Positions 1,166 through 60,198 of a stretch of DNA of 64,000 nucleotides are shown in pieces. Position numbers and translations under genes: made by a program. How positions within the stretch are numbered: position 1 is the first letter of the stretch; the number at the start of each line of letters is the position of its first letter. The notes under the pieces are model-generated. The model saw only the letters and a program-made list of their open reading frames with translations. It was not told where the DNA came from and searched no databases. Source of the stretch: Eledone cirrhosa (lineage: Eukaryota); assembly GCA_964016885.1 (NCBI GenBank), contig OZ024752.1, positions 26,970,001-27,034,000 of the forward strand, in the 5' to 3' direction.

Positions 1166-1468
1166 TGTGTCACCTTTTCAACATATTGTATTTTAAAGAG
1201 CTCAGGATTCCGTCTCCTTTGAGCACATTATTGACAGGGAATATCGAGCGTCTGTGGCTCCGTTAATTTATCGTGATATATATACATAGTTTTAATATAG
1301 AAAAGCTTGTACAGGACTAGAACTGTCTCATTCGTGAGAAATCATCAGGAAGCCTCACGAATGAAACAGTTCTAGTCCTGTAGAAGCTTTTCTATATTAA
1401 AACTGTTATACGCTGCTATGTATTGAGTACCTTACTTACTGTGGTTACCTCCGATTCAACACGGAATA

Positions 1469-1500
<32 letters not shown>

Positions 1501-1504
<4 letters not shown>

Positions 1505-1872
1505 ACATTAAATTATGGTATGCCTTCATCAGACAAAATACAATATATAACAGTTTTACAAATAAGCTTTGACGTACCCTATTAAAATGCAACCATTATT
1601 TTTGGAAGCCATCCAAAATAATGGTTGCATTTTAATAGGGTTCGTCAAACCTTATTTGTAAAACTGTTATATATTGTATTTTGTCTGATGAAGGCATACC
1701 ATAATTTAATGTGGTATCCCTGAAATATGTATAATGAAATAAATATGGTTTTATAAATATAGTTTCCATTTATTAATATCGTATATCTACTCCAATACTT
1801 GTCGAGTGCTTTATATCAGTTATAAAAATATTTACTTGTTGTATCCCAACAATTTTAAATAGAACTTTTGCA
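1501..1872. mobile_element. Fold-back insertion, family F1 (related copies at 13345-13880, 15864-16333, 19148-19476)
   Basis: Inverted arms meet near 1610; common 3' end ..AAATAGAACTTTTGC-(AT)n; carries a hammerhead. Confidence 0.75.
1679..1739 (+). ncRNA. Minimal type I hammerhead ribozyme (F1)
   Basis: TTTTGT-CTGATGA-AGGCATACCATA..TGTGGTATCCCT-GAAA-TATGTA-TA-ATGAAA. Confidence 0.8.
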
Positions 1873-2156
1873 TATATATATATATATATATTTAATTTAT
1901 ATGTCGGCGATGAATTTGTTTTGCAATGTTTTTGATATGAAATTAATTATAAACATATAACATATACTAAAGCGAAAACCAACCCAAACCAATCAGTTTG
2001 TGTGTTTTATTGTATATTTCTGGCAATATTATAGCAACCTGACCCTCCCTAAATATCACAATAATGTATAAGTCACGTTTACGTAAATCTGCAACTATAA
2101 GAAATTTAATTATATATACACATATCTGACAGAAGCCAAACGACATATATATATAT

Positions 2157-2471
2157 ATATTAAAATACAAATATTAATAAAATCGATGTTCTTTTGATCA
2201 ATTACATTTTATTATACATATTTCAGAGGTACAACAGTACGTACTCATCAGACAAAATATAATGATACATGACATACCCTGAGATGTTAAATGGTTAAGA
2301 TTTAATTAAGGTACTACCTTGATTAAATCTTAACCATTTAACATCTCAGGGTATGTCATGTATCATTATATTTTGTCTGATGAGGACGTACTGTTGTACC
2401 TCTGAAATATGTATAATAAAATGTAATTGATCAAAAGAACATCGATTTTATTAATATTTGTATTTTAATAT
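2157..2471. repeat. Near-perfect ~315-bp palindrome carrying two opposed hammerheads (2207-2257 minus, 2371-2421 plus)
   Basis: Centre near 2314 (AAGGTACTACCTT); plus motif TTTTGT-CTGATGA-GGACGTAC..GTACCTCT-GAAA-TATGTA-TA-ATAAAA. Confidence 0.85.
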
Positions 2472-2674
2472 TAATAACTCTGGAAAATACTTACTTGTAG
2501 ATGCTTCCAATCTACTGTAAAACTCCTTCTTTGATGTACTCATTGAATCTTGTTTAGCTCTTTAATATATATATATATAGCGATGACATACCAATGAAGG
2601 TTGGAAAATCACTGACGAAGGACTATTTTTATCATATGTAACCCATGTGCAACCACGCAGTATTCTTTCTCCTC

Positions 2675-2721
<47 letters not shown>

Positions 2722-2876
2722 AGAGAGTGTAACGTGGAGTTACTGTAGGTTCATCTGGGTGAGCACTCGATGTTTAGGTTCATGTCGCTATCGAGGTGTA
2801 GAGCTAGCCAGAGTGCAGTATAGTAAAATAAAATAAAACAAGGACGTTTGGTTACTCCTTCGTTACGGTTATTGGT

Positions 2877-2963
2877 TGGTGACGCGCGTTTCGCTATTGA
2901 TCAACTCATGGTTCGATCTGTATCGATCTAGTCCGACTCTCTAATCAATGGCTCGTCGGATCT
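2877..2963 (-). ncRNA. Decayed hammerhead ribozyme, C4 variant
   Basis: Minus strand CCGACGA-GCCATTGATTA..TGATCAATAGC-GAAA-CGCGCG-TC; palindromic helix III, weak helix I. Confidence 0.55.
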
Positions 2964-3877
2964 CTGTGGTAGTACTAATATATATATAGTGTTTGGCTTA
3001 TGTCAGACGCTGTCAACCGGATGGAGCAGCTGTACCATTGGTAGGTGTTGAAACTGCCAAAGTCGATCTTTTGTATTTTTATTTTAAAAAAATAGTTTTT
3101 TAAGGTTTCAAAATTGTTTTTCGTTTTGTTTTGTTTCCGTTCGTTGTCTTATTCTCTCTTTGTTAATTTTCTTAAGTTTATCAACTATTGTGTCGTACAT
3201 TATAAAATAAACAGGATGGGTTGGGTTCTCAATATGTAGACTAAACGAATAATTCTGTTTTTTTTTAAAAATAAATCAACTAAGAACAACCTAGAAAAAT
3301 TAGAAGACTAGGAGACCTCCATATATAATAAAACGTTTAAGCTCTACTGGAATGGTTTGATTTCCTCGCCTGATGTTCTGACTGTTTCATTATGGGTAAT
3401 TTTATTATCCATAAATTATAGCTGTTTCCTGATGCTACTTTGCACCAGTTAAAACCAGTTTACATCAGTTAGCACCGGTATTCACTATTTTCGTAAATGG
3501 GGAAACACAGCAATTCAATAGCCTGATGTGTTATTAAACATAGTTCGAAGATGGAGTCAATAAAAGACAATTCAATCATTAAGATTATCACCGTCATCTC
3601 ATTAGAATGGTCCTAATCCGAATGATCTAATTGTCATCATTACCTTTAACATCTCTAGCGGCTTTATTATCACCCTGAAAAGCCACCAGCACCACCAGTA
3701 CCACCACCGGTACCACTATCCTCGCCGTCATCATCATTATCATCATCATCATCACCACCCTCTTTTTTCTGCTTTTCACGATCACCATCAATACCACTAT
3801 TATTACAATCATTTACACCAACACTATGTCCATTATCATCATCATTGTCATTGCCATCATCATCAACACCATTATTT

Positions 3878-4060
3878 GATTTGAAGTATCGGTAGAGGGT
3901 CAGACACCATGCTTTTCAGCATAGTTACGTCCCTTTACGGTCTGAGTTCAAATCCCATCGAGGTTAACTTTGCCTTTCATCCTTTCGAGGTCGATAAAAT
4001 AAAGTACCAGTAATGCACTGGGATAATTGCTGGCCGTGTGCCAAAAGTAGAAACAATTAT
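3878..4060 (+). mobile_element. SINE family A
   Basis: Matches 218-410 consensus. Confidence 0.8.
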
Positions 4061-4409
4061 TACCGTTATAGTTGTCATCATCATCATTTCGATCGGTTTC
4101 ATCATGTTTTTCCTCTCAACCCCAACCTCATCATCATCACATCATAATACCACCACCACCACCACCACACCATTACCACCATCACTAAATGAGCTTACCA
4201 CAAGTTCATCTGTTTAACCTAGAGTAATAAATGGTGAGCGCTTGGAACCTAGTGTTTCAGGTGCTCACAGCTCTTTGTATGCTGAACAATGTAGTCAGTA
4301 AAATCTCAACGTTTCTGTGGAAGGTTACTGGTTATGTTGTGTGTGTCGATGGAAATGCCTCCTTGGAGAACTATTGCATCGGGAATATGTATAATTATCA
4401 AAATTAATA

Positions 4410-4735
4410 AGGTGGTGAATTGGTAAAGTCGTTAGAACGTCGGATAGAAAGCTTTATGGTATTCGTTCCGGCTTTCTACTCTCAAATCCCGCCGAGGTCA
4501 ACTTTGCCTTTCATCGTTTCGAGGTCGATAAAAAAAACGTCCCAGTCTAGTACTGGGGTGTATTCTTCCTCTATATCTCTTTCTCATTTCCTCTCTTTCA
4601 CTTTCATCCTCTCACTGGAAGAAATCTGCTGTACTGAGGCATGGAGAGGGTTGGGCTCCGCCTGGCTTAAAATCCCCAAGAAACGTCGTATGTCAATACG
4701 GCGCCCCTACAACTCTATCAGGAGTTACCGGGCCG
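4410..4735 (+). mobile_element. SINE subfamily B with distinct long tail
   Basis: Same head and core, then ..TATGTCAATACGGCGCCCCTACAACTCTATCAGGAGTTACCGG, also at 56880-57160 and 23990-24301 (minus). Confidence 0.65.
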
Positions 4736-4749
4736 TACCATACCATTGT

Positions 4750-5620
4750 ATTGATAATAATCTATATAATATGTATGCAGTGCCCATTAGCACTATTTCC
4801 TGTAAGTTGTTCAGATTTCTAACCCCTGAATATTTGTTCACATATTTTAAGTCACCTACTATTATAATGATTATTTCCATTTCTATTACATTCTACTTAT
4901 CTGTATTTCCAGATCTATATATTTACATAATCTTTTCATTTCTTTGAGAGATACTTATCGTTTGTTTGGACTGATACATTATTTAGGAGACATGTTCATT
5001 TCAGGTTCTGCTTGATCGTTTAGCTTTATTCTCTTTGACTTTGAAGATTAGCATATTACAGTATACGGTCAATTTGTTATTCTCTGCAGTGTTTCTGTTG
5101 TATGTAATATCACCTTTTTTCTGTTGATAATGTCATCTTGGCTTCCATTTTATGAAACATCATTTCTGTCATGCCTGTATTATTGACTCTGACATGACAG
5201 CCACAGAAAATTTTGTTAATTGTTTCTTCTTAACCTTTCACATGTTAAGCCACAATCATGATTCTTTCAATTTTAGATTTGAGTCCTGCTCACCAAATGA
5301 TTTGTATGTCTATTTGCATTCTGTATATATATATTTTTTTCATGTACTAACTATCTCGGATGTTTTATTTGCCATAGCCACTTTAAACATCGTGTTCGTT
5401 TTTCCATTACAACTTTTAGGTTTTTGTACTTCTTACAGTTGTATTTCTTTGCAACATTTCTATTGTATTTGTTAGCATGTTTAGAGTCAGAAAACAGCTT
5501 TTTGTTTTATATATACAACATTAATAGCCCTAGTAGTTCTCTCAGTATAATTAGTCAGATTCTTCAAAAGCCACGAAATCTGTTTTGAATGTTTTCTGAG
5601 TTTGTTTGATTTAAGCGTGA
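4750..5620 (-). pseudogene. Heavily decayed 3' part of an R4/Dong-like non-LTR retrotransposon (restriction-like endonuclease region)
   Basis: Minus-strand pieces read CLLNNVSV..SLKEM, KYIDLEIQISRM, IIIIVGDL, NLQEIVLMGTAYI, matching the RLE-LINE C-terminal pattern IDVS..KE.EK..KY.DL..EI.RMW..PIIVGALG..QK.ALLGTAHIL; upstream boundary approximate. Confidence 0.6.
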
Positions 5621-6342
5621 AGGTTCAGATAAATAGAAAGACGACTTTAATCTAATTGTAATATATATATAATAAACAAGCTTATAACATAATTATATAT
5701 TATTAATAACTACTACAGCCATCACTCGTAATAGAGTATAACTTGGTAGTATGTATGAATATTTCACTAAATGTTTTAGGCACTCAAACAGTCGTAAGAA
5801 GATACAAATCCCTTCTGACAGCTGATAGAAGAGTGGGCTGGTGCTTCCATTATCGACTAGCTTTGAGCTGGTATTTTCTTTATCGATCCCGAAAGGATGG
5901 ATGGCTAAGTATTCTTGGCTGTATTTGAACTCAGAACGCAGAAAACCGGAATAAATCGACTGCCTTAATCGTAGTAACGAGAAGATTAATAGCTTGCAAA
6001 TCTATATTTAATGGAAGATAGCTTGTTATCAGTAAACTAAAAATCTTGATTGTATGGTAACAAGCTTCAATTATTGAAAAGACATCGATTTTCAATCAGA
6101 AGAGCAGCAGCAATTTGATTCGATTCAGTTGGAAATTGATGCAACAATAGTAAGAAAACAGTAAAAATAATAAATAATAACTTGCTGTATCGACACGAGG
6201 TCACAATTTTGGCTGTGTTAATGACGTTTAAATTGACCCCACTATAAGATTGTTCTTGCTTTCTGACATTCAACAGCTTCTGTCATCCACTGCCCTGCAT
6301 TATTGCCGCTGCTTTTGCTGCTGGTGATAATAATAATAATAA

Positions 6343-6450
6343 TTGTTTCTACTGTGCATTACTAGTGCATTACTGGTACTTTATTTCATCGAACCCCGTA
6401 AGGATGAAAGACAAAGTCTACCTCGGCGGGATTTGAACTCAAACCGTAAA
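6343..6450 (-). mobile_element. SINE family A fragment
   Basis: Reverse complement of the core and tail. Confidence 0.7.
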
Positions 6451-6841
6451 GGGCCAATGTTTTCTTATTTAGGCACAAGATTAACTTTTGGGGGGAGAGA
6501 AAAGTCGATTAAATCGACGCCAGTGCGTTACTGGTGAAAAGCTACTTATACAAAAGGTGCCTCTAATATGGCTATCTTAGGATAGTCTAACAAAACAGAT
6601 CGGATCTAAAGGAATAAACCTCTATAAAATCCTGCTTGTCTCACAGTAAGCAGAAGCTCATGCAACGATTATCAGTTTAATTAGATGATCTCGCCATCAT
6701 GAACACCAGTGGCTTCGGAGCTGATCGATTAATTTGACAATGGATTGGCTCGACTGCTCCAGTTAGCGGAGAAATCTCTGAGTATGCAGATATGGCGAAC
6801 CACAAATATTCTAGCTACTCTCAGACGTACTTGAACTCAGT

Positions 6842-7117
6842 ACTGCCGAGCTCCTCCGCAAGATCGGAGCGTCGGCGGCCCATCTGAGGAGAGAGCCCCG
6901 CGCATTTGGCTGGCTGCTGCAGAGGGTGTCACTGGCCATCGTCCGGTGGAATGCTTTTGCCGTCTTGTCCGCGGGCGCAGCACTCCTTCCACCTAGCCCT
7001 AGTCCCAGCCCATCCCTTTCCCATTCTTTTTTTTATTTTTTTCTCTTTTTTTTTTCTATATTTCCCTATTCGTTCTTTCCTTTTGTTTCCCCCTTTATTA
7101 TTTTTCTTACTAAATAA
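6842..7117 (+). pseudogene. 3' fragment of a CRE-like non-LTR retrotransposon
   Basis: Frame from 6842 reads TAELLRKIGASAAHLRREPRAFGWLLQRVSLAIVRWNAFAVL, resembling the CRE-clade C-terminal QRLSxAxxRGNA motif; GC-rich island followed by a pyrimidine-rich UTR. Confidence 0.65.
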
Positions 7118-7629
7118 GGTTTGTTTATTGCCTTTGAATACATTCATATTATTACTAGAAAAAGCAAAATGAATGTTTCACCTTCGAGGGAGGGATTACT
7201 CAAGAAGAGCACCTGAGATATTTTAAAATTTGTCCCTCGTTTACCTGCCCCACCCAACACGATTTCTCCCGGTGTTGTGTTATGTTACCGTGTTTCGTTG
7301 TAACATGTTCCACAATGTCTGATGGGTATCAAGGTTCATCATTTTCTTTTTTTTTTACAAACCACTTTGCGTTCTTTATCTCCCCATTCTTCCAATTCAT
7401 CTTTTCCCTGGGTTATTTGCAACATTTGCAAAGAAAATTCCCTTTGCAGATGTTTGGTTGCAACTATTATTATTGTTATTGTTGCTGCTACTGACGTCAG
7501 TTGGTTTCAAAATCATAATGATACTGGAGGAGGATCTGGTGACAGTGGTGGCGGTGATGTTATTATTTTCTTTTGGGTGGTGAAATTATGTCGCACGTTG
7601 GGGCAGAGGCTGAGCTGGTGGCATTTTTG

Positions 7630-7818
7630 CTGTCAGGATTGGCAGTATCGGTAGAGGGTTGGACGCCATGCTTTGCAGCATAGAGTTACGGCCCTTTATG
7701 ATATGAGATCAAATCCGGCCAAGGTTTACTTTGCCTTTCATCCTTACCGGGTCGATAAAATAAAGTACCAGTAATGCACTGGTATAATTGCTGGCCTTTT
7801 GCCTATATGAGAAACCAT
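7630..7818 (+). mobile_element. SINE family A
   Basis: Matches consensus. Confidence 0.8.
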
Positions 7819-8918
7819 TCTTGTTATCTGTTGCGCTGGTTTCAGTAGTAGGAAAACTAGTTAATTGGTTGCTTGTCTCTTTGTCTCTGTCTTGCTGTCT
7901 GTCTGGTTAGCTGCCCGTCTGGCTGGCTGCTTGTCTAAGCTGGCTTGTTGACATCGTCATTCTCATCGCCGTCGTTGTTATTTTACTTCCATTTGTTGTG
8001 GTGGTGTTGGTGGAGGAGAGATATATGCGGGCCTGATACATTTTTAATCGTTAAATTGTTTCCCGTTACTCTTTCTTGTTTTTGCTTTTCTCTCTATCTT
8101 TGAAAATTTTGTTTGAAAGAAGTCAAAGTTCATTTTCAAAATCTTGCTTTTGTTTTCGTTAATAATGCTGACATATTCATCAATGGTAGATTGTCTGTTC
8201 GCAGTGTAGTAGTAGTTGTTGTTATTGTAGTTAGTTTTAACCGTTGGATGGTGTCGGTAGCGGAGACTAGTGAGGGAAATGTCAGCTTGCCAGATACATT
8301 TCCACTCGTTGAACCAACCTTCAACTCCCCTCTCTTCTTGAATGGTTTCTTTATTGCACATACAATAAAGTGAAAGTTAAAAATATAGACGCGACAGTAT
8401 ATGCGCAGTTGAAAATTAAGTTTGATAACAGAGTTTGCAGATGGCGTTGTAAACGAGACAGTTTAAAATAGTGCATCATTGAAACAGTCTAATAAGTAGG
8501 TTATCTGAAAAAACACACGATTAAACTAGATATTAAAGAATAGTCAGGAACACGTAGATTAGGTCAGGGCACTCTCACAATTCTGATCATTTTTATTTTC
8601 CCAAACCCCATCGTTTAACTACTCGCAAGATAAATTCAGGTATCGGACTGGGCAAGAAAGCGACCACGTAGGCTGTTGCTTAAATACACCATTTCGTAAA
8701 TATAAAACAAACCATCTGAGGTGAATTTTACAAGCAACATACATCTGGAATGCTCCACATAGTGTAATCTCATCGTTTGAAATATCTGCACAGTTTCTGT
8801 CCCTAACGAGATGATCGACGAAGTAGAAGAATGAAAAGAAAAAGTGGTAAATATGAGGAGTGTGAATAAAAGATAGAGACGGCGTTGGTTTGTCTCACAA
8901 ATTGGCATTACATTACAC

Positions 8919-11025: not shown

Positions 11026-11356
11026 CGTTCCTTTGTCAGTATTGAACAAACGAGCAACGATGGTTGCTAGACACTACGGCTTAATACGGGATGTTTGTTT
11101 ACAAACACACCGAGCATTATAATACATTTTCGGTGAATCCATACGTACATATATATGTGTGTGCATGTATGTATATATATATACATACTACTGTACGTCT
11201 GTATACATATATGTATGTACGTGTACATACTTATATTTAAGTAACAGCCGTACTAAGAGTGGGAAGTGAAATTTCGTTTCATCTTTTCCGATTATATATA
11301 TATATATATATATATATTGATATTTATATATATATATATATATATATTGATATTTA

Positions 11357-13877: not shown

Positions 13878-13916
<39 letters not shown>

Positions 13917-14021
13917 AATAGAATGAAACGAAATTTCATTTCTCACTCTTAGTACGGCACTTACTTAAATGTAGGTATTATGTATACGTAAATACATATA
14001 TGTATACAGACGTACAGTAGC

Positions 14022-14095
<74 letters not shown>

Positions 14096-14488
14096 CATGC
14101 TACTGTACGTCTGTATACATATATGTATGTACGTATACATAATACTTACATATATATATATACATACAGGTACACATATATATATATGTACGTATCAGTT
14201 TAGCGAACGTTTATTATAACGCTCGATTTGTCCGTTTGTAAACAAACAGACAGCCTGATTTATGCCGTACGGTGTTAAGGCAACCACGTCACCTTTTTGT
14301 TCAACACTGACACAGGACAAAGCGAGCGTTATAATAAACGGTCGCTAAACTGATACGTACATATATATATATGTGTACCTGTATGTATATATATATATAT
14401 ATACACATGCTACTGTAGGTCTGTATACATATATGTATGTACGTATACATACATACTTACATATATATATATTGATATCGATATATTT

Positions 14489-14637: not shown

Positions 14638-14758
14638 TCAATTTATATATATATATCAATATATATATATATATCAATATATATATATATATCAATATAT
14701 ATATATATATATATCATGTATACGTACATACATATATGTATACAGACGTACAGTAGCA

Positions 14759-14832
<74 letters not shown>

Positions 14833-14991
14833 TATATGCATACAGGTACACATACATATATGCACGTATCAGTTTAGCGGACGCTTATTATAACGCCGCT
14901 TTGTTCGTTTGTAAACAAACTGAACAGCCTGAATTTATGCCATACGGTGTTAAGGCAACCACGTCACCTTTTTGTTCAACACTGACACAGG

Positions 14992-15036
14992 AACGATGTA
15001 CTAGTTTCAAGCTTGTTAGCTATCATCAGCACCGTT
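14992..15036 (-). ncRNA. Minimal type I hammerhead ribozyme (R2)
   Basis: AACGGTG-CTGATGA-TAGCT(AACA)AGCTT-GAAA-CTAG-TA-CATCGTT; 7-bp helix I, palindromic ACTAGT. Confidence 0.88.
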
Positions 15037-15450
15037 TACCCATCTGACAGATAGTTGAACGTTCGAAAGTATATACTTTCCTTATGAAAATTAACGGCTG
15101 AGCAGCCTAATTTGCATATTGAATGAGTTAAATCGGTCAGGCATACCGAAAACGATAAATTGAAATAAAATGAAAACGAAATTTCATTTCTCACTCTTAG
15201 TATGGCACTTACTTAAATGTAAGTATGCATGTATACGTACATACATATATGTATACAGACGTACAGTAGCATGCATATATATATATAATATATATATATA
15301 TATAATTTCGTTTTCATTTTATTTCAATTTATCGTATTCGGTATGCCAGACCGATTTAACTCACTCAAGATGCAAATTAGGCTGCTCAGCCGTTAATTTT
15401 TATAAGAAAAGTATATACTTTCGAACGTTCAACTATCTGGCAGATGGGTA

Positions 15451-15495
15451 AACGGTGCTGATGATAGATAACAAGCTTGAAACTAGTACATCGTT
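15451..15495 (+). ncRNA. Minimal type I hammerhead ribozyme (R2)
   Basis: AACGGTG-CTGATGA-..-GAAA-CTAG-TA-CATCGTT. Confidence 0.83.
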
Positions 15496-15654
15496 CCTGT
15501 GTCAGTGTTGAACAAAAAGGTGACGTGGTTGCCTTAACACCGTATGGCATAAATTCAGGCTGTTCAGTTTGTTTACAAACGAACAAGGCGGCGTCATAAT
15601 AAGCGTCCGCTAATCTGATACGTGCATATATGAATGTGTACCTGTATGCATATA

Positions 15655-15693
<39 letters not shown>

Positions 15694-16137
15694 GTATGTA
15701 CGTATACATGCATACTTACAATTAAGTAAGTGCCATACTAAGAGTGAGAAATGAAAATTCGTTTTCATTTTATTTAAATTTATATATATATCAATATATA
15801 TATAATAAATATCAATATATATATATCAATATATATTTATATATTTATATATATATATCAATATACGATATTAAAAAAATGGAAACTATATTTATAAAAC
15901 CATATTTATTTTATTATACATATTTCAGGGATACCATATTAAAAATATGGGATGCCTTCGTCAGACAAAATACAATATATAAACAGTTTTATAAATAATT
16001 TTGACGTACCATAAATATAAGCGACCATTAAGATAGGAAGCTGGCTTGGTAGTGACTACCAAGCCAGCTTCCTATCTTAATGGTCGCTTATATTTATGGT
16101 ACGTCAAAATTATTTATAAAACTGTTTATATATTGTA

Positions 16138-25440: not shown

Positions 25441-25947
25441 AAATGTAAGTATGTATGTATACGTACATACATATATGTGTACAGACGTACAGTAGTATGT
25501 ATATATACACATACATGCACACATATATGCACCTATCGGTTTACCGAACATTTCTTATAATGCTCGGTTTGTTTGTAAACAAACAAACAGCCTGAATTAC
25601 GCCGTACAGTGTTTAGGCAACCAGGTCACCTTTTTGTTCAACACTGACACAGGAACGATGTACTAGTTTCAAGCTTATTAGCTATCGTCAGCATTGTATA
25701 CCTTCCTGCCAGATGGTTGAACGTCTGAAAGTATATACTTTCCTTATGCATATTAACGGCTGAGCAGCCTAATTTACATATCGAGTGAGTTTAGTCGGCC
25801 GGGCGCACCGAAAACGATAAATGGAATAGAATGAAACGAAATTTCATTTCTCACTCTTAGTACGGCAGTTACTTAAATGTAAGTATGTATACATACATAC
25901 ATATATGTATACAGACGTACAGTAGTATGTATATATATACATACATG

Positions 25948-26020
<73 letters not shown>

Positions 26021-26260
26021 GCACGTATCGGTTTACCGAACATTTATTATAATGCTCAGTTTGTTTACAAACAAACCGAGCATTATAATAAATGTTCGGT
26101 AAACCGATACGTGCATATATATATGTATATGTGTGCATGTATGCATATATATACATACTACTGTACGTCTGTATACATATATGTATGTACGTATACATAC
26201 TTACATTTAAGTAACTGCCGTTCTAAGAGTGAGAAATGAAATTTCGTTTCATTCTATTCC
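25441..26260. mobile_element. Retrozyme-like R2: ~1.4 tandem units (minus) plus inverted arm; hammerhead at 25654-25697 (minus)
   Basis: AAATGTAAGTATG at 25441 and 25875 (period 434); strand switch near 26065. Confidence 0.75.
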
Positions 26261-26304
26261 AACTATATACATATATATATATATAGATATATATTTATAC
26301 ATAC

Positions 26305-37595: not shown

Positions 37596-37599
<4 letters not shown>

Positions 37600-37651
37600 G
37601 TAAGTATGTATGTATACGTACAAACATATATGTATACAGACGCACAGTAGC

Positions 37652-37686
<35 letters not shown>

Positions 37687-38359
37687 CAGGCACACATATA
37701 TATATGCACGTATCAGTTTACCGAACATTTATTATAATGTTCGCTTTGTTCGTTTGTAAACAAACGAACAGCCTGATTTACGCCGTACAGTGTTCAGGCC
37801 ACCACGTCACCTTTTTGTTCAACACTGACACAGGAACGATGTACTAGTTTCAAGCTTGTTAGCTATCGTCAGCACCGTATACCTTTCTGCCAGATGGTTG
37901 AACGTCCGAAAGTATATATTTTCCCTATGAAAATTAACGGCTGAGCAGCCTAATTTGCATGTCGAGTGAGTTCAGTCGACCAGGCGCACCGAAAACGATA
38001 AATGGAATAGAATGAAACGAAATTTCATTTCTCACTCTTAGTACGGCACTTACTTAAATGAAAGTATGTATGTATACGTACATACATATATGTATACAGA
38101 CGTACAGTAGCATGTATATATATATATATATATATATACATACAGGCACACATATATATATGCACGTATCAGTTTACCGAACATTTAATATAATGTTCGC
38201 TTTGTTCGTTTGTAAACAAACGAACAGCCTGATTTACGCCGTACAGTGTTTAGGCAACCAAGTCACCTTTTTGTTCGTTTGTTTACAAACGAACAAAGCG
38301 AACATTATAGTAAATGTTCGGTAAACTGATACGTGCATATATATATGTGTGCCTGTATG

Positions 38360-38416
<57 letters not shown>

Positions 38417-38518
38417 GCTACTGTACGTCTGTATACATATATGTAAGTACATATACATACATACTTACATTTAAGTAAGTGTCGTACTAAGAGTGAGAAA
38501 TGAAATTTCGTTTCATTC

Positions 38519-38522
<4 letters not shown>
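37596..38522. mobile_element. Retrozyme-like R2: ~1.5 tandem units (minus) plus inverted arm; hammerhead at 37835-37878 (minus)
   Basis: AAATG(T/A)AAGTATGTATG at 37596 and 38056 (period 460); strand switch near 38272. Confidence 0.78.
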
Positions 38523-38552
<30 letters not shown>

Positions 38553-42773: not shown

Positions 42774-44009
42774 ATTTATTATTGAATGAACACTTATATG
42801 ACCTCCTTTTCACCCAAGAGACATACAGATACATATGCAAATATTGTGGGTCAACATTCATTACAGCATTTAGTGTGGCAGTACACATTTAGAGATTACA
42901 TTCATATTAAAAGATACAATCAAAAATACAGGTTAATTAAGCAGTTATAGAGTGCAATAGTTATACATGTGGCAAGCACGTGCGTCTTGTTTATATATTG
43001 TGGCAGAGAGTTACGTGTAATAGAAGCACTTAAGCTGGTAATCAAGAGTGTTAAGGGGGTTGATCTGGTAATGAATTCTTTATATGATTGTTATAGCCTG
43101 TGCGTGGAGAAATAATATAAGCATTAAAAATAATGTAAGCATTAAAAATATAAGCATTAAAAATATTGGAAATGCGTAGCGAAGCGATGATATGGATTTC
43201 ATGCACTGCGACATTTTCATAGTCCGGGGAGCGTATATTTCAGATTATATGCCCCTCACATAATCCACGACGATTCGATATTGGGCGTTTGACAATCCTC
43301 TTAGAGAATCGTAGTCTGATGTTCTTTAGCTCAATACAGCAGGTTCTTACGTTGCGAGAATCGACATCGAAATATTACCCGGAAGTGTGTGTGTGGCTAA
43401 GGGGAGTTAATGCATGAGGGGAGGTAACTCAGTGGTTTCTATTACTAACTATTAAATTGTGTCTCAAAATAGTCCCTAACTTCTATGGTTATGCGCAGTT
43501 TCTACAAATTTAATGTGTCTTAACTATAAAGTAGTCTATTAAGCTGTGCTGAAGGTGTTCATATTATGGTGATTATCCTCCATCGTAGAGTGCCACAAAT
43601 GAATATTTTACACGACGAGCGAGATTTCTAAATTAATGATCATTGTGATTGTAGTCTACTCATCGAACCAGGCAAGGTGATTCCAGAATCACTTCAACAC
43701 ACAATGATCCCTGGTAAGTTCCGGGTCAGTGCATGTTATATTGGATGTCGAAAGATAACTATCACTAGGGTAGACCAGAGGTCAATCCACACTCCTCATG
43801 TCACTAATCTGACCATCAAATCATACATAAATATATGTACAACCCATACGCCACTTGCAATACATTCACTGCACTCAGCATACCGGTCGTACAGCTCATC
43901 AACGTTCCTAGATTAATAAGTCTTCCATTTATCCAACGATGGCACTTCTTCCGCATAGCACCAACAATACAATCAATTCAATGCTTAAATTTTACATTAA
44001 CTATAAATA

Positions 44010-46965
44010 GCACCCGGAGACTTGCTCCTGAAAATCACTAAAGCAATCGACCAGTGCTACCACTCCAGAGTCCAATACGAGAAAAAACGGCTCAAGCGAA
44101 AATATGAGTGGATCTTGTCGAAACGCCACAACGAGAACATCGACACTAACGAACAGACGGACCAGCACCACGTGGAAAACAACAACTTAACAACCGCCAC
44201 CGCCGCAACCACCAACACAGAGCCATATCTCAACGATGCGACGCACCTGGTCACCGACCTAACCGGCACTCTCACGAGCGACGAGCTGAAACTGATACAC
44301 CTCGGACCTAAGTTCATCGTCACACAACATCTCGACGACAGACTGAAACTCAACATCGAGGCCAACTTTTGTCGAGCCGCTTACCAACTTAAATGGGTGA
44401 CCGCCATCAACAGCGCCACAGAAAATAACAGCGCCGACGCAACCCACCCCAAGTTCCCCACTTACCACCCCGACAACCCACTCCATCCCCCACCTACCAA
44501 CCACGAACTCGACACTAAACTCATCAGGCTAAAACACTCCATCTCGGATATACTTCACAAACACACACACACACGCACAACACATAACCTCACCAAATCT
44601 CAACTCACCACTCTCTCCAACCTAAAATCGAAGAACCTCATCTATCTCCCCTCCGACAAGGGAAAAGAATTCTGCGTCATCAGCAGAGAGGCCTACAACA
44701 CCCTGGCCCTCCAACACCTTGACGATGACAACCTTTACTCCAAGTTCACGGGAATCACTTCCGCGCAGATAGAAGAACACATCAACTCCGCCTGGACCAA
44801 CATCTGCGACCGGCGGAAGCTCCCGTAGAAGCTGAGATACAACCTCCTCACGAGGAACAGCAGACTACCCGCCTTCTACCACCTCGTGAAAACACACAAA
44901 CAGGGACCCGACCTGAAAATGAGACCCATCGTATCGAGCGTGGAGGGACCACTCTACAAAATTTCATGGCTCCTAGCCAGAATACTCAAACCCATCTTAG
45001 ACACCTTGCCGGGACACGTTAACAGCTCCGAGGAGGTGTTTAAGCGCCTGCATCAAATGGATCCCGACACCAGAAGGAATAACAGATATGCCTTCAGCCT
45101 TGATGTAGTCGCTCTCTACACCTCGGTCCCGGCACTCCCGGCCGTCAATATACTAATGGAACGCGTCCAATCCACCGACCTACACTGCTTCGGGCTCACC
45201 ACCACTGACATCCACCAACTCCTCTCCATCGTCGTCGACAACACCTATTTCGGATTCCTTGACCAATATACCAACAAACCTCGGGATTGCCCATGGGATC
45301 AAGCCTATCAGGTGTGCTAGCGATCTCTTACATGGACAACCTCGAACGCAAGGCACTCAACGCCTGCCACCCCAACGCCGTAGCCTTTTTCTCAAGGTAC
45401 GTGGACGATATCCTCATCCTCACATCTTCCCAAGACACGGCGAACAGAATCTATGTGACGTTCAACAACACGGACGAGAACATTGACTTCAGTGTTGAAC
45501 ACCCCAACGAAGACGGGTCACTTGCCCTCCTCGACTTTCGAATCAACATCACAGAACAGGGAAGGATCCACTGCAACTTCTACCGAAAGGCAGCCTGCAG
45601 GGACCTATTCGTTCACTACAAGTCCGCCCTCCCTAACAGTGCCAAAAGAGGATACATCACGAACGAGATCGCGCGAATCAAAAACAGATGCAGCGATCCC
45701 GCGAGTGGCGTCACTCATACCAAGCGATTCCTCGAGGTGTTGGAGACGAACGGGTACCCTACCTCGATCACAGACAGAATAGGAGACACCAGACGCAAGA
45801 GACAGAGAAGCACCCAAGGCAAGTGCTTCCTTAAAATGCCACACCTGGGCGAGAAAACCACCAACGCTATCCGCAAGGCTATACGGAGGGAGGGCCTCGA
45901 CATCCACCTGGCCCACTCGGGCCTCTCCCTACGAAGATGCCTCTCCAGGAAACCCGAAAAATCTACTGACGCATGCTCCCTCAGAGACTGCCCGATACGC
46001 CATGCGAACTGTTGCCTACGCACATACGTCGTGTATAAGATAGAATGTGACAGGTGCAACCAATACTACATAGGTAGCACAATTCGACCTTTGCACATCC
46101 GGATCAAGGAACACATTAAAACCAGGGCCTCGTCTTTCCGGAAACACATAGACAAATGCGGAAACAAAGACGGAAGGCCCATTGTCACAATTCTAGCGAC
46201 TGAAAGAAACGTCGGCACGTTACGTATCAAGGAAGCGCTTTTTATCAAACGACTGCAACCGCAAATAAACAATCGATCAGAGAGAAGCGAAATGAGACGG
46301 CTGGTTTAAGTTAACAAGCGATGCAACAACACACAACACACGCACACACACACACACGCAAACGAGACAACTACACACACACACGCACACACACACAGTA
46401 GCATTCCACCATACGAACATACTACACTGCCAATACAGAGGAACAAGGCAACAACACACGCTCACACACTCAAGCGAGACAACAACACACGCACACACAC
46501 ACACAGTAACATTTAACAAACAGGCAGAGAATGGACTGACAGCTAGCGCCATCCCACTCCCTCACTCGGCCGCTGACCTCTGTACGACCGACCCCATTTC
46601 ACGCGCACGCGCGCTCTGCCGAATACCTCAGATATTCAAAACAACAAACAGCGAAGGACGCGTTCCGGACTTGTCCGACAGACAACCTTTTCCCCCACCC
46701 CGGAAAAAACCCCCGGTTGCCGGTTGATGGATGTGAATCCGAAATATATAGGGACTATTAAATCTCTCCCAAGGTAACTCTCTCTTGTGTTGTTATTTTT
46801 ATTTTATCCTTTATACTGTTCCCTTCATTCTACACATCTCACACATCTTATACACACCACGCATCTCAACATAGACCCACTTTCATCTCTCTCTCCACCA
46901 CCGGACCTTGTTACCCGGAGATTTACCCATTTGCATCGTCGAGGCTTCCAAACGACTTAAAGATA
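44010..46965 (+). mobile_element. Near-full-length Penelope-like element ending in (TA)n
   Basis: GC-rich body, CA-rich 3' UTR, partial hammerhead at 46720-46755, then TA array; 5' boundary uncertain. Confidence 0.88.
44022..46309 (+). pseudogene. Penelope-like retroelement polyprotein: reverse transcriptase plus C-terminal GIY-YIG endonuclease
   Basis: LGPKF, PSDKGKEF, KTHK..MRPIVS, FSLDVVALYTSVP, GLPMGSSLS, RYVDDIL, LLDFRI, YRK, then Cys linker, VVYKIECDRCNQYYIGST.R.LHIRIKEH..KEALFIK..PQIN; in-frame TAG at 44826-44828 and a 1-nt frameshift near 45266. Confidence 0.95.
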
Positions 46966-58471: not shown

Positions 58472-59670
58472 AATCAGGAGTAATTGCATTGTGGAAGATT
58501 CCTTTTACTCATACAAAACTCACACAACAACTGTTAAATTGATTTTTCATTTTCGCGATGTTAACATATTCGTTGTATGTTTTGTGATCTGGTCACTCAC
58601 AATTAAACACTGCTGACTATCAATATATTTTTAATCTATGTTAAAAAAGTATTTGAAAAATTGATACAAGGTCCTTTCTTTTGTGTATGCATTCATCAAC
58701 TGCTATCTCGTTGAATATTAAATATCAAAGAAATTTATCGTTGTAGATTATTATGACAAAATGTGTTTGAGCATTAATATATTTGAACATATGTATTCTG
58801 CCCGACTGGTTACACCTGCAGTATCTGGAAGCATTTATATGTTGATAGTCGATGGTAAACAATTTCTGTTCTATGTTTTCTCGTAGCGAGAACATATGTA
58901 CAGGTGTGACATTTATAATCATCATCCAACAACATAACTTAAACTGTAGTAGCAGCTGATCTATGTGTAGTGTTGCAAGGTCTCTTTCCTATTCTGAAAT
59001 TACAATACAAACAAACATTGTTTCATACTCACCAGTATTAGGCCTAGTAAAAATCTGAACACGATATAACATTTGATATTTTCAAGATTAGAGTAGGAAC
59101 TTTGTGATAATGAAGACCTTTGCACAATGGAACAAAAGCTCTCCTGTCACCCCCCCCCCCCCCCCCCAAAAAAAAAAAAACAAGAAAGAAAAAATCACAG
59201 AACCAATAACTAGCTTATTGAAAATCTTTAGCCAACGCCGATATTGTCAAAACTTTGCGATATAAATGAAAATAAATGTCGGGTAGTACTGGTTTGGCAA
59301 GTGATTTGATGTGAATATATGTAATGAATCTGAAGTAATTGCATTGTGGAAGAATCCTTTTACTAATACGAAAACACACTCAACAACTGTTAAATTCATT
59401 TTCATGATGCAAACATATTCGTAGTCATTTTTGTGATCTGGTCATTCACAATCAAATATTTCCAAACTTGGTTACTTGCCAGTTTTATCGGCATCAGTTG
59501 GTATTTTTTCTACTCGGTTAATCAAGGATGTAGGTTCAGGGGTCACCCCAATAAAGTTGGAAAATACATTAAAGTTTATTATTTTTCCATCTTCAGAGAA
59601 ATACGTATATTGATGTATTGATGTATATTGATGTATTGATCAATATCATCATCAACATCAATACAACCCC

Positions 59671-60198
59671 ATCAATACAACCCCTAGAGGCGAACTAGCC
59701 TACAAATTTAGAAGGGCCCTAAAGAAACATAATCTCAATATTAAGATAGTAGAAACACCTGGTACCTCCGTAAAAACACTTATTAGCAAGACATACCCGT
59801 TCCAAAGACCCTCATGTATAGATAAGAAATGTATAACCTGTAAAATAAGCCCCCATATTAACTGTAAAACTAGAAATGTAGTATATAGCATAAGATGTAC
59901 TGAAGGACAATGTAGAAACAAAAATGTAGTGTACATAGGTGAGACAGCTCGTAGTATAGGGGAACGAATAAATGAACACTGGCGAGACCTCCAAGATAGT
60001 AAAGAATCATCTGTGCTCTACCAACATGCTAAGATAGAACACAGGGGTAAATTAGAGAGCATAGAAATAAAAATAGAATCCACACACAAGAAAGACGCAA
60101 TGTTTAGGCAAATTACAGAGGCAGTAAGCATAAAAGAATTAAAACCAAAATTAAATAGAAAATATGAGTGGAACAGCAACATCACAACTTACAATTAA
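59671..60198 (+). pseudogene. PLE family A linker plus GIY-YIG endonuclease; 5'-truncated but uninterrupted frame
   Basis: TTPRGEL..IVETPGTSVK..CIDKKCITC..NCKTRNVVYSIRCTEGQC..YIGETARSIGERINEH..SVLYQH..RQITEA..LNRKYEW. Confidence 0.88.

Follow-up and report, generated by a model that had tools for sequence, protein, structure and literature searches.

How does a short non-coding DNA unit come to lie in partial tandem copies that run through their own end back into their start? This question is raised by positions 37596 to 38523 of a 64,000-nucleotide stretch of Eledone cirrhosa DNA (the window). The original prediction read the repeat at this locus, designated R2, as a retrozyme family copied from a circular RNA template. 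One part of that reading stands: R2 is a non-coding tandem family with a hammerhead, and its two 3′ ends, inverted arms, and (TA)n surroundings indicate mobilization by Penelope-like elements (PLEs). The other part, the circular template step, did not hold up to the same degree. Overall, our analysis shows that R2 is a real and abundant family with recent activity, and that it is probably a retrozyme-like, non-autonomous PLE.

R2 unit and its insertions in the window

We numbered the R2 unit as a 460-nt circle in which c1 is the first base after the predicted hammerhead cut. The unit has 37% GC, is non-coding, and contains an internal (TA)n tract. A tblastn search found no protein family match inside any arm, in agreement with the absence of an ORF noted previously. 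The reported unit periods of 460 (37596/38056), 434 (25441/25875), ~513 (14721/15234), and ~451 (15305/15756) were also borne out, and the junction from unit end to unit start is identical and seamless between R2 units, as had been claimed. However, the four places listed in the original prediction correspond to three insertions, as 14721–15304 and 15304–15774 are opposite arms of one, and the segments at 38272–38523 and 26059–26261 are inverted arms rather than tandem continuations. In total, the window holds five R2 insertions, including one at 13915–14465 that was absent from the original list.

The first insertion has a main arm of 1.48 units on the minus strand, extending from 38276 to 37596 (c26 through the cut to c246). 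It consists of a 5′-truncated upstream partial unit (38056–38276, minus strand, c26–c246; 95% identity to 37596–37820) that passes seamlessly into a full 460-nt unit (37596–38055, minus strand, c247 through the cut to c246), whose 3′ end lies at c246 (site A) and is followed by (TA)n. An inverted arm on the plus strand (38272–38523, c76–c297) is joined head-to-head with the main arm with a 5-nt overlap and has a site B 3′ end that leads into (TC)n. End mapping places a "tail" of 57–58 nt, c247–c304, between both 3′-end sites (37998–38055, minus strand).

The second insertion has the same arrangement, with a main arm at 25441–26065 (minus strand, c92 through one unit to c247; hammerhead at 25655–25697) and an inverted arm at 26059–26261 (plus strand, c81–c299). 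The third belongs to an older subfamily and comprises a minus-strand arm that ends near site A (14721–15304; hammerhead at 14993–15035) and an opposite plus-strand arm (15304–15774, c278 through one unit to c296; hammerhead at 15452–15494). The fourth, at 13915–14465, has no hammerhead and pairs a minus-strand arm (c7–c298, 13915–14317) with a plus-strand arm (c97–c247, 14317–14465). Finally, the decayed copy originally placed at 11030–11290 is present, with refined coordinates of 11026–11295; it is a single plus-strand arm (c4–c304) between (TA)n runs that begins 3 nt past the predicted cut and has no hammerhead.

Contigs from three of four runs of unrecorded kind cover 37712–38062 and contain variants and loose (TA)n ends at 37998; they are uninformative on cleavage, strand, and level. 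An intron in c247–c400, either retained or spliced, had been suggested by splice-like motifs and was rejected, as no recurrent deletion was found.

Ends and arms of R2 insertions

R2 ends were surveyed in the window, in 60 loci from the genome search, and in 58 random stretches, after merging of duplicates. We excluded three array loci, any arm truncated by the edge of its locus, and pieces below 74% identity. This yielded 105 arms in 62 insertions, most of them at loci picked by similarity to a young copy. The 3′ ends fall at c228–248 (site A) in 42/105 arms, at c295–305 (site B) in 48/105, and elsewhere in 15. The probability that 90 of 105 ends would lie by chance in 32 of 460 positions, here at two sites 57 nt apart, is ~1e-87. 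The earlier statement that the start and end points of copies vary around the circle is therefore correct for the 5′ ends, which are spread, and incorrect for the 3′ ends.

(TA)n follows 79 of the 105 arms and 76 of the 90 with classed ends. Head-to-head arms are present in 36/62 insertions, giving 37 head-to-head pairs and no tail-to-tail pair. By end class, these pairs comprise 23 A+B, 3 A+A, and 0 B+B, and in the other 11 an end is unclassed; the mixed A and B type thus accounts for 23/26 fully classed pairs (P about 4e-5). The joins between opposite arms mostly contain 0–7 bases of overlap. Taken together, the fixed 3′ termini, spread 5′ ends, and head-to-head arms indicate that the R2 family is polar.

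Clusters of 5′ ends flank the hammerhead on either side (c7–10 and c406–424), and none of 26 read-through matches stops inside it. These clusters are perhaps attributable to pausing of the reverse transcriptase (RT) at structure.

Predicted hammerhead and sister family

A pattern search confirmed one type I hammerhead motif per R2 unit, on the minus strand. In the first insertion, the predicted hammerhead spans 37836–37878 (minus strand), with a predicted cut between 37842 and 37841. Its parts are a 6-bp helix I, a CUGACGA core, a 4-bp helix II closed by U-U, GAAA, and a palindromic ACUAGU helix III. Of 70 R2 hammerhead motifs listed, 51 are identical, and all 70 have U-U at positions 10.1–11.1, the base of helix II. 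G10.1–C11.1 is highly conserved in hammerheads (PMC4209133), and the R2 motif lacks the canonical catalytic geometry of this pair and the loop 1–loop 2 contacts. Published retrozyme members likewise vary in catalytic geometry (PMC7229834). The U-U at 10.1–11.1 lowers the odds of efficient cleavage while leaving family membership, as defined in a 2026 preprint, unaffected. The kind of hammerhead with a palindromic helix III requires a dimer (PMC4209133).

Folding predictions describe a monomer that is highly self-paired, with 63% of bases paired as a circle and the hammerhead core paired in an inactive register with a probability of 0.76–0.97. The dimer arrangement is predicted at −19.0 kcal/mol versus −13.0 for two monomers; free cofolding of R2 monomers (−20.9) gives another structure than the hammerhead dimer. 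The TA-free 345-nt part of R2 has a folding z of −3.75, and its antisense also reaches −2.84; for the whole unit, TA tract included, z is −7.1.

Searches against Rfam returned no hammerhead match at the gathering level or among 115 matches to E = 10, all weak and attributable to hairpin look-alikes. The R2 motif call therefore relies on the pattern search and on covariation of the helices between R2 and a sister family, relative to which 6 of 13 hammerhead pairs are changed on both sides, in a single divergence event. This sister family is non-coding, ~480 nt in length, and co-linear with R2 (L073 7260–7985 and L081 4940–6328). It has a palindromic helix III like that of R2, G-C at 10.1–11.1, inverted arms, and (TA)n ends. 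That it shares the same layout indicates that the non-coding layout is old.

Insertion of an anole PLE was unimpaired in hammerhead mutants, and the reads included none with an end at the cut (PMC11167929). Among Xenopus dimers, 1/9 was cleaved in vitro (10.64898/2026.07.22.740005).

Abundance, age, and arrays

A search of the 3.0-Gb genome with R2 gave 3129 first-look candidates, of which 40 were scored, with 96–98% identity for full-length matches. R2 was also present in 8 of 58 evenly spaced 10-kb stretches, weighted to large chromosomes, as 8 clusters totaling 3528 bases or 0.6% of the sampled DNA; three further matches were dropped as sister family. Scaling gives an estimate of ~41,000 insertions (95% range 18,000–81,000). 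Copies from the random sample diverge from the majority letter by 6–12% and search-picked copies by ~1.4%, which indicates old and recent waves.

Arrays of R2 occur in both orientations on C14 at 25.07–25.14 Mb (L181, L173, L119, L120, and L174), with 47 hammerhead cores in an array of ~24 kb and 17 in 10 kb of another, longer than 10 kb. The array units are 6.3% apart, and some carry an 85-nt replaced segment. Variants that are rare among dispersed copies are present in these arrays and rule them out as the source of young dispersed R2 copies. The long arrays likely grew later by local duplication. Among the dispersed arms, two or more hammerheads were found in 9/105, and 96/105 have at most one.

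Relation to coding PLEs

The original prediction called for a check of whether any copy extends into an RT ORF. We examined 116 R2-bearing loci (211 arms with repeats) by tblastn with 46 PLE protein queries and found no direct ORF link. A same-strand PLE protein match within 2 kb upstream of an arm was seen at 10 distinct places; in all of these, either the match and the arm are separated by an inverted R2 arm or a run of (TA)n, or the match is a weak antisense one. L146, L162, L210, L055, and L227 were considered as ORF-linked candidates and rejected as nested insertions. Upstream, R2 arms pass into the previous unit with no ORF or 3′ UTR in between. Rare ORF-linked copies are possible among tens of thousands.

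Comparison of R2 with the repeats of coding PLEs, whose families were sampled unevenly and incompletely, gave no match in 30 GIY-YIG, 20 long-ORF, and 29 Hydra-type loci, nested copies aside. Coding elements with RT and GIY-YIG domains in the same genome have the same (TA)n targets and inverted arms. Young coding PLE families with long open frames are abundant in this genome, and their ends are unrelated to R2. The lack of an ORF link and the unrelated ends of the coding PLEs point to R2 being a non-autonomous PLE.

Proposed insertion mechanism

We consider it probable (about 0.75) that R2 is a non-autonomous PLE, that is, a non-LTR retrozyme, copied into (TA)n microsatellites in trans by a coding PLE through its RT/GIY-YIG protein. 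The insertion anatomy has close precedents. PLE insertions are 5′-truncated partial tandems whose 5′ end carries an inverted copy; their tail of 30–40 bp often lies at one end only, and (TA)n is the target in several clades (PMC8557442). In vitro, a PLE protein cleaves AT-rich DNA and extends both strands, and reverse transcription starts inside the RNA at two neighboring sites, with the stretch between them forming the tail (PMC11167929). By analogy, c246 and c304 would be the two reverse-transcription start sites of R2, which would make the borders of its tail a pair of internal starts.

A possible pathway would begin with the PLE protein nicking both strands of an AT-rich target. Reverse transcription would then start inside the R2 RNA, at c304 on one strand and at c246 on the other. 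Both cDNAs would stop at variable points and be joined 5′ to 5′ via a few overlapping bases. We lean slightly toward an RT that rolls around a religated 460-nt circle, with cleavage requiring a dimer or help from a protein; alternatively, the template would be an uncut transcript of two or more units. A more specific version, in which the PLE protein primes twice on a small circular RNA, rolls, and extends both strands, sometimes with two different RNAs, is doubtful at present. If true, R2 would be a genomic footprint tying animal retrozyme circles to PLE enzymes.

Circular or linear template

A cut linear monomer is unable to template cDNA across the cut. The predicted cut is read through in 26 of 29 matches covering c25–100, among which two pairs share an insertion and one pair an arm. 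In 22 unselected arms, 18 read through the cut and 4 stop within 12 nt of it; 5′ stops near the cut occur at 0.0096 per nt versus 0.0016–0.0076 nearby, a weak hint of some linear cut template. No extra bases are found at the cut in any of the 70 listed hammerheads, and some arms reach at least three units.

Haplotypes at three polymorphic sites, compared in non-independent pairs, agree in 96/100 comparisons of tandem units and 92/95 of opposite arms, versus 8715/16017 between insertions. Rare private variants are common to all units or arms of one insertion (L010, 3/3; L212, 3/3). In L177 and L198, arms of several units seem to have arisen later by local duplication. Read-through and one haplotype per insertion fit a circle, but they also fit an uncut transcript of a young homogeneous multimer. 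Likewise, the copies look permuted because they are primed internally and truncated at the 5′ end, and both processes can also act on an uncut transcript of several units (PMC11167929). The insertion anatomy is by itself no proof of circular RNA. Judged from the sequence, a hammerhead-cut, religated 460-nt circle has marginally better than even odds of being the R2 template.

The closest alternative retains the non-autonomous PLE and dispenses with the circle: an uncut linear multi-unit transcript would be internally primed, the hammerhead would be weak or have another role, and tandems would be renewed by local duplication. We regard this as a plausible account that falls somewhat short of even odds. 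PLE insertion proceeds in vitro without cleavage (PMC11167929), the U-U at 10.1–11.1 and the predicted inactive monomer fold would suit an uncut RNA, most arms are under two units (96/105 have at most one hammerhead), and locally duplicated arms and arrays do exist. However, copies made in this way would shorten with each round, and a single haplotype with private variants across units and arms would need a homogenizing step. The arrays found are not the source of young dispersed copies. The hammerhead helices have also been kept by compensatory change.

Two other explanations would remove R2 from the non-autonomous PLEs. The first treats R2 as the pseudo-LTR of an as yet unseen coding PLE and its copies as 5′-truncated products of that element. 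Although the anatomy and the palindromic hammerhead are as in pseudo-LTRs (PMC4209133 and PMC8557442), and a small sample of ~41,000 insertions was examined against unevenly sampled PLE families, we find this improbable. It predicts ORF sequence upstream of the hammerhead, whereas the arms enter the previous unit there, up to at least three units; moreover, the 116 loci contain no direct ORF link, and the sister family, laid out in the same way, is likewise non-coding. Still less credible is a repeat of satellite or MITE-like type that spreads by copying at the DNA level and carries the hammerhead as a passenger. Arrays of more than 20 kb in both orientations, inverted arms that resemble terminal inverted repeats, and a microsatellite within the unit would be expected of such a repeat, but the polarity, unequal arms, and (TA)n targeting of R2 agree with target-primed reverse transcription and with what the coding PLEs in this genome show. 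For the dispersed copies, this explanation is largely refuted; for the growth of the arrays, DNA-level copying likely accounts.

Relation to known retrozymes and PLEs

A study defining animal non-LTR retrozymes showed circles in coral, mussel, and axolotl and put PLEs forward as strong candidates for the helper (PMC7229834). More recently, retrozymes were argued to be non-autonomous PLE derivatives, in a study whose accessible text includes no mollusc among its samples (10.64898/2026.07.22.740005). By its sequence, R2 would be classed with the non-LTR retrozymes. Like metazoan members, it has a non-coding unit of a few hundred nucleotides with GC below 45% and one type I hammerhead per unit (PMC7229834; 10.64898/2026.07.22.740005), and it ranges from dimers to long arrays in a genome where coding PLEs co-occur. 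Mussel retrozymes (350–390 bp) resemble R2 in lacking the usual loop–loop contacts (PMC7229834). At 460 nt, R2 is above the 170–400 nt of PMC7229834 and inside the 51–972 bp of 10.64898/2026.07.22.740005. R2, known here from DNA, differs from these retrozymes in being mostly dispersed two-armed insertions and in the U-U at the base of helix II. The accessible text of PMC7229834 and 10.64898/2026.07.22.740005 describes neither two fixed 3′ ends nor inverted arms of retrozymes. We found no report of a cephalopod retrozyme in the literature searched, which lay outside subscription journals and Repbase.

R2 also shares features with EN+ PLEs (Neptune, Hydra, and Poseidon), including 5′ truncation, partial tandems, an inverted 5′ arm, and a tail at one end (PMC8557442, PMC4209133, and PMC11167929), as well as (TA)n or AT-rich targets and a hammerhead with a small palindromic helix III. 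Unlike these elements, R2 has no ORF, its units join directly, and its tail is 57 nt rather than 30–40 nt; its sequence matches none of the pseudo-LTRs in the sampled coding families. MRC1 and other non-autonomous elements of Chlamys resemble R2 in being non-coding and derived from PLEs; they have pseudo-LTRs and multicopy insertions arranged head-to-tail (PMC8557442).

The retrozyme kind is thus already known, and PLEs were already proposed as helpers on the basis of co-occurrence, shared hammerheads, and repeat phylogeny. R2 adds an end-by-end insertion anatomy that matches the in vitro PLE mechanism, in a young and very abundant family. With candidate helper ORFs in the same genome, the use of circular RNA by a PLE RT and the role of the hammerhead in mobilization become testable.

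Other PLE-related sequences

Two coding PLE sequences lie in the window. At 44007–46309 (plus strand), a PLE ORF spread over three frames matches both RT and GIY-YIG, and a GIY-YIG fragment of another family occupies 59632–60195 (plus strand); the ends of both are unlike those of R2. Elsewhere, L215–L244 represent a very abundant young coding PLE family (76,815 first-look candidates) with DKT and CxCX5C motifs and 713-codon open frames in several copies, which belongs to the Hydra clade by PMC8557442. The named relatives of one coding PLE are bivalve or bivalve-associated records at ~50% identity. The 3′ ends of L152, L153, L160, and L162 belong to a young Neptune-type PLE whose repeat carries a hammerhead-like motif with palindromic ACCGGT; in this motif, U3-A8 replaces C3-G8, and two 3′ ends ~63 nt apart are seen by eye.

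At two loci, an R2 arm is joined head-to-head to a 5′-truncated coding PLE, of Neptune type in L171 (~4800–8149) and of Hydra type in L081 (~1250–4796). Both joins are without (TA)n and occur via short fold-back sequences, and the coding PLEs end outward in (TA)n. They represent 2 of 31 unpaired arms, and LINE sequence adjoins other arms too. A later deletion or chance is a possible origin of these joins. If the PLE protein does prime twice on a circular RNA, they would instead be single insertions naming helpers from two clades.

Finally, we observed at least seven other type I hammerhead-like motifs in the window, at 827, 1685/15964, 2251/2377, 22294/60509, 29353, 32718/32853, and 53056. Several of them have a palindromic helix III and occur in inverted pairs, and, as sequence motifs, they point to many PLE-related families in the window.
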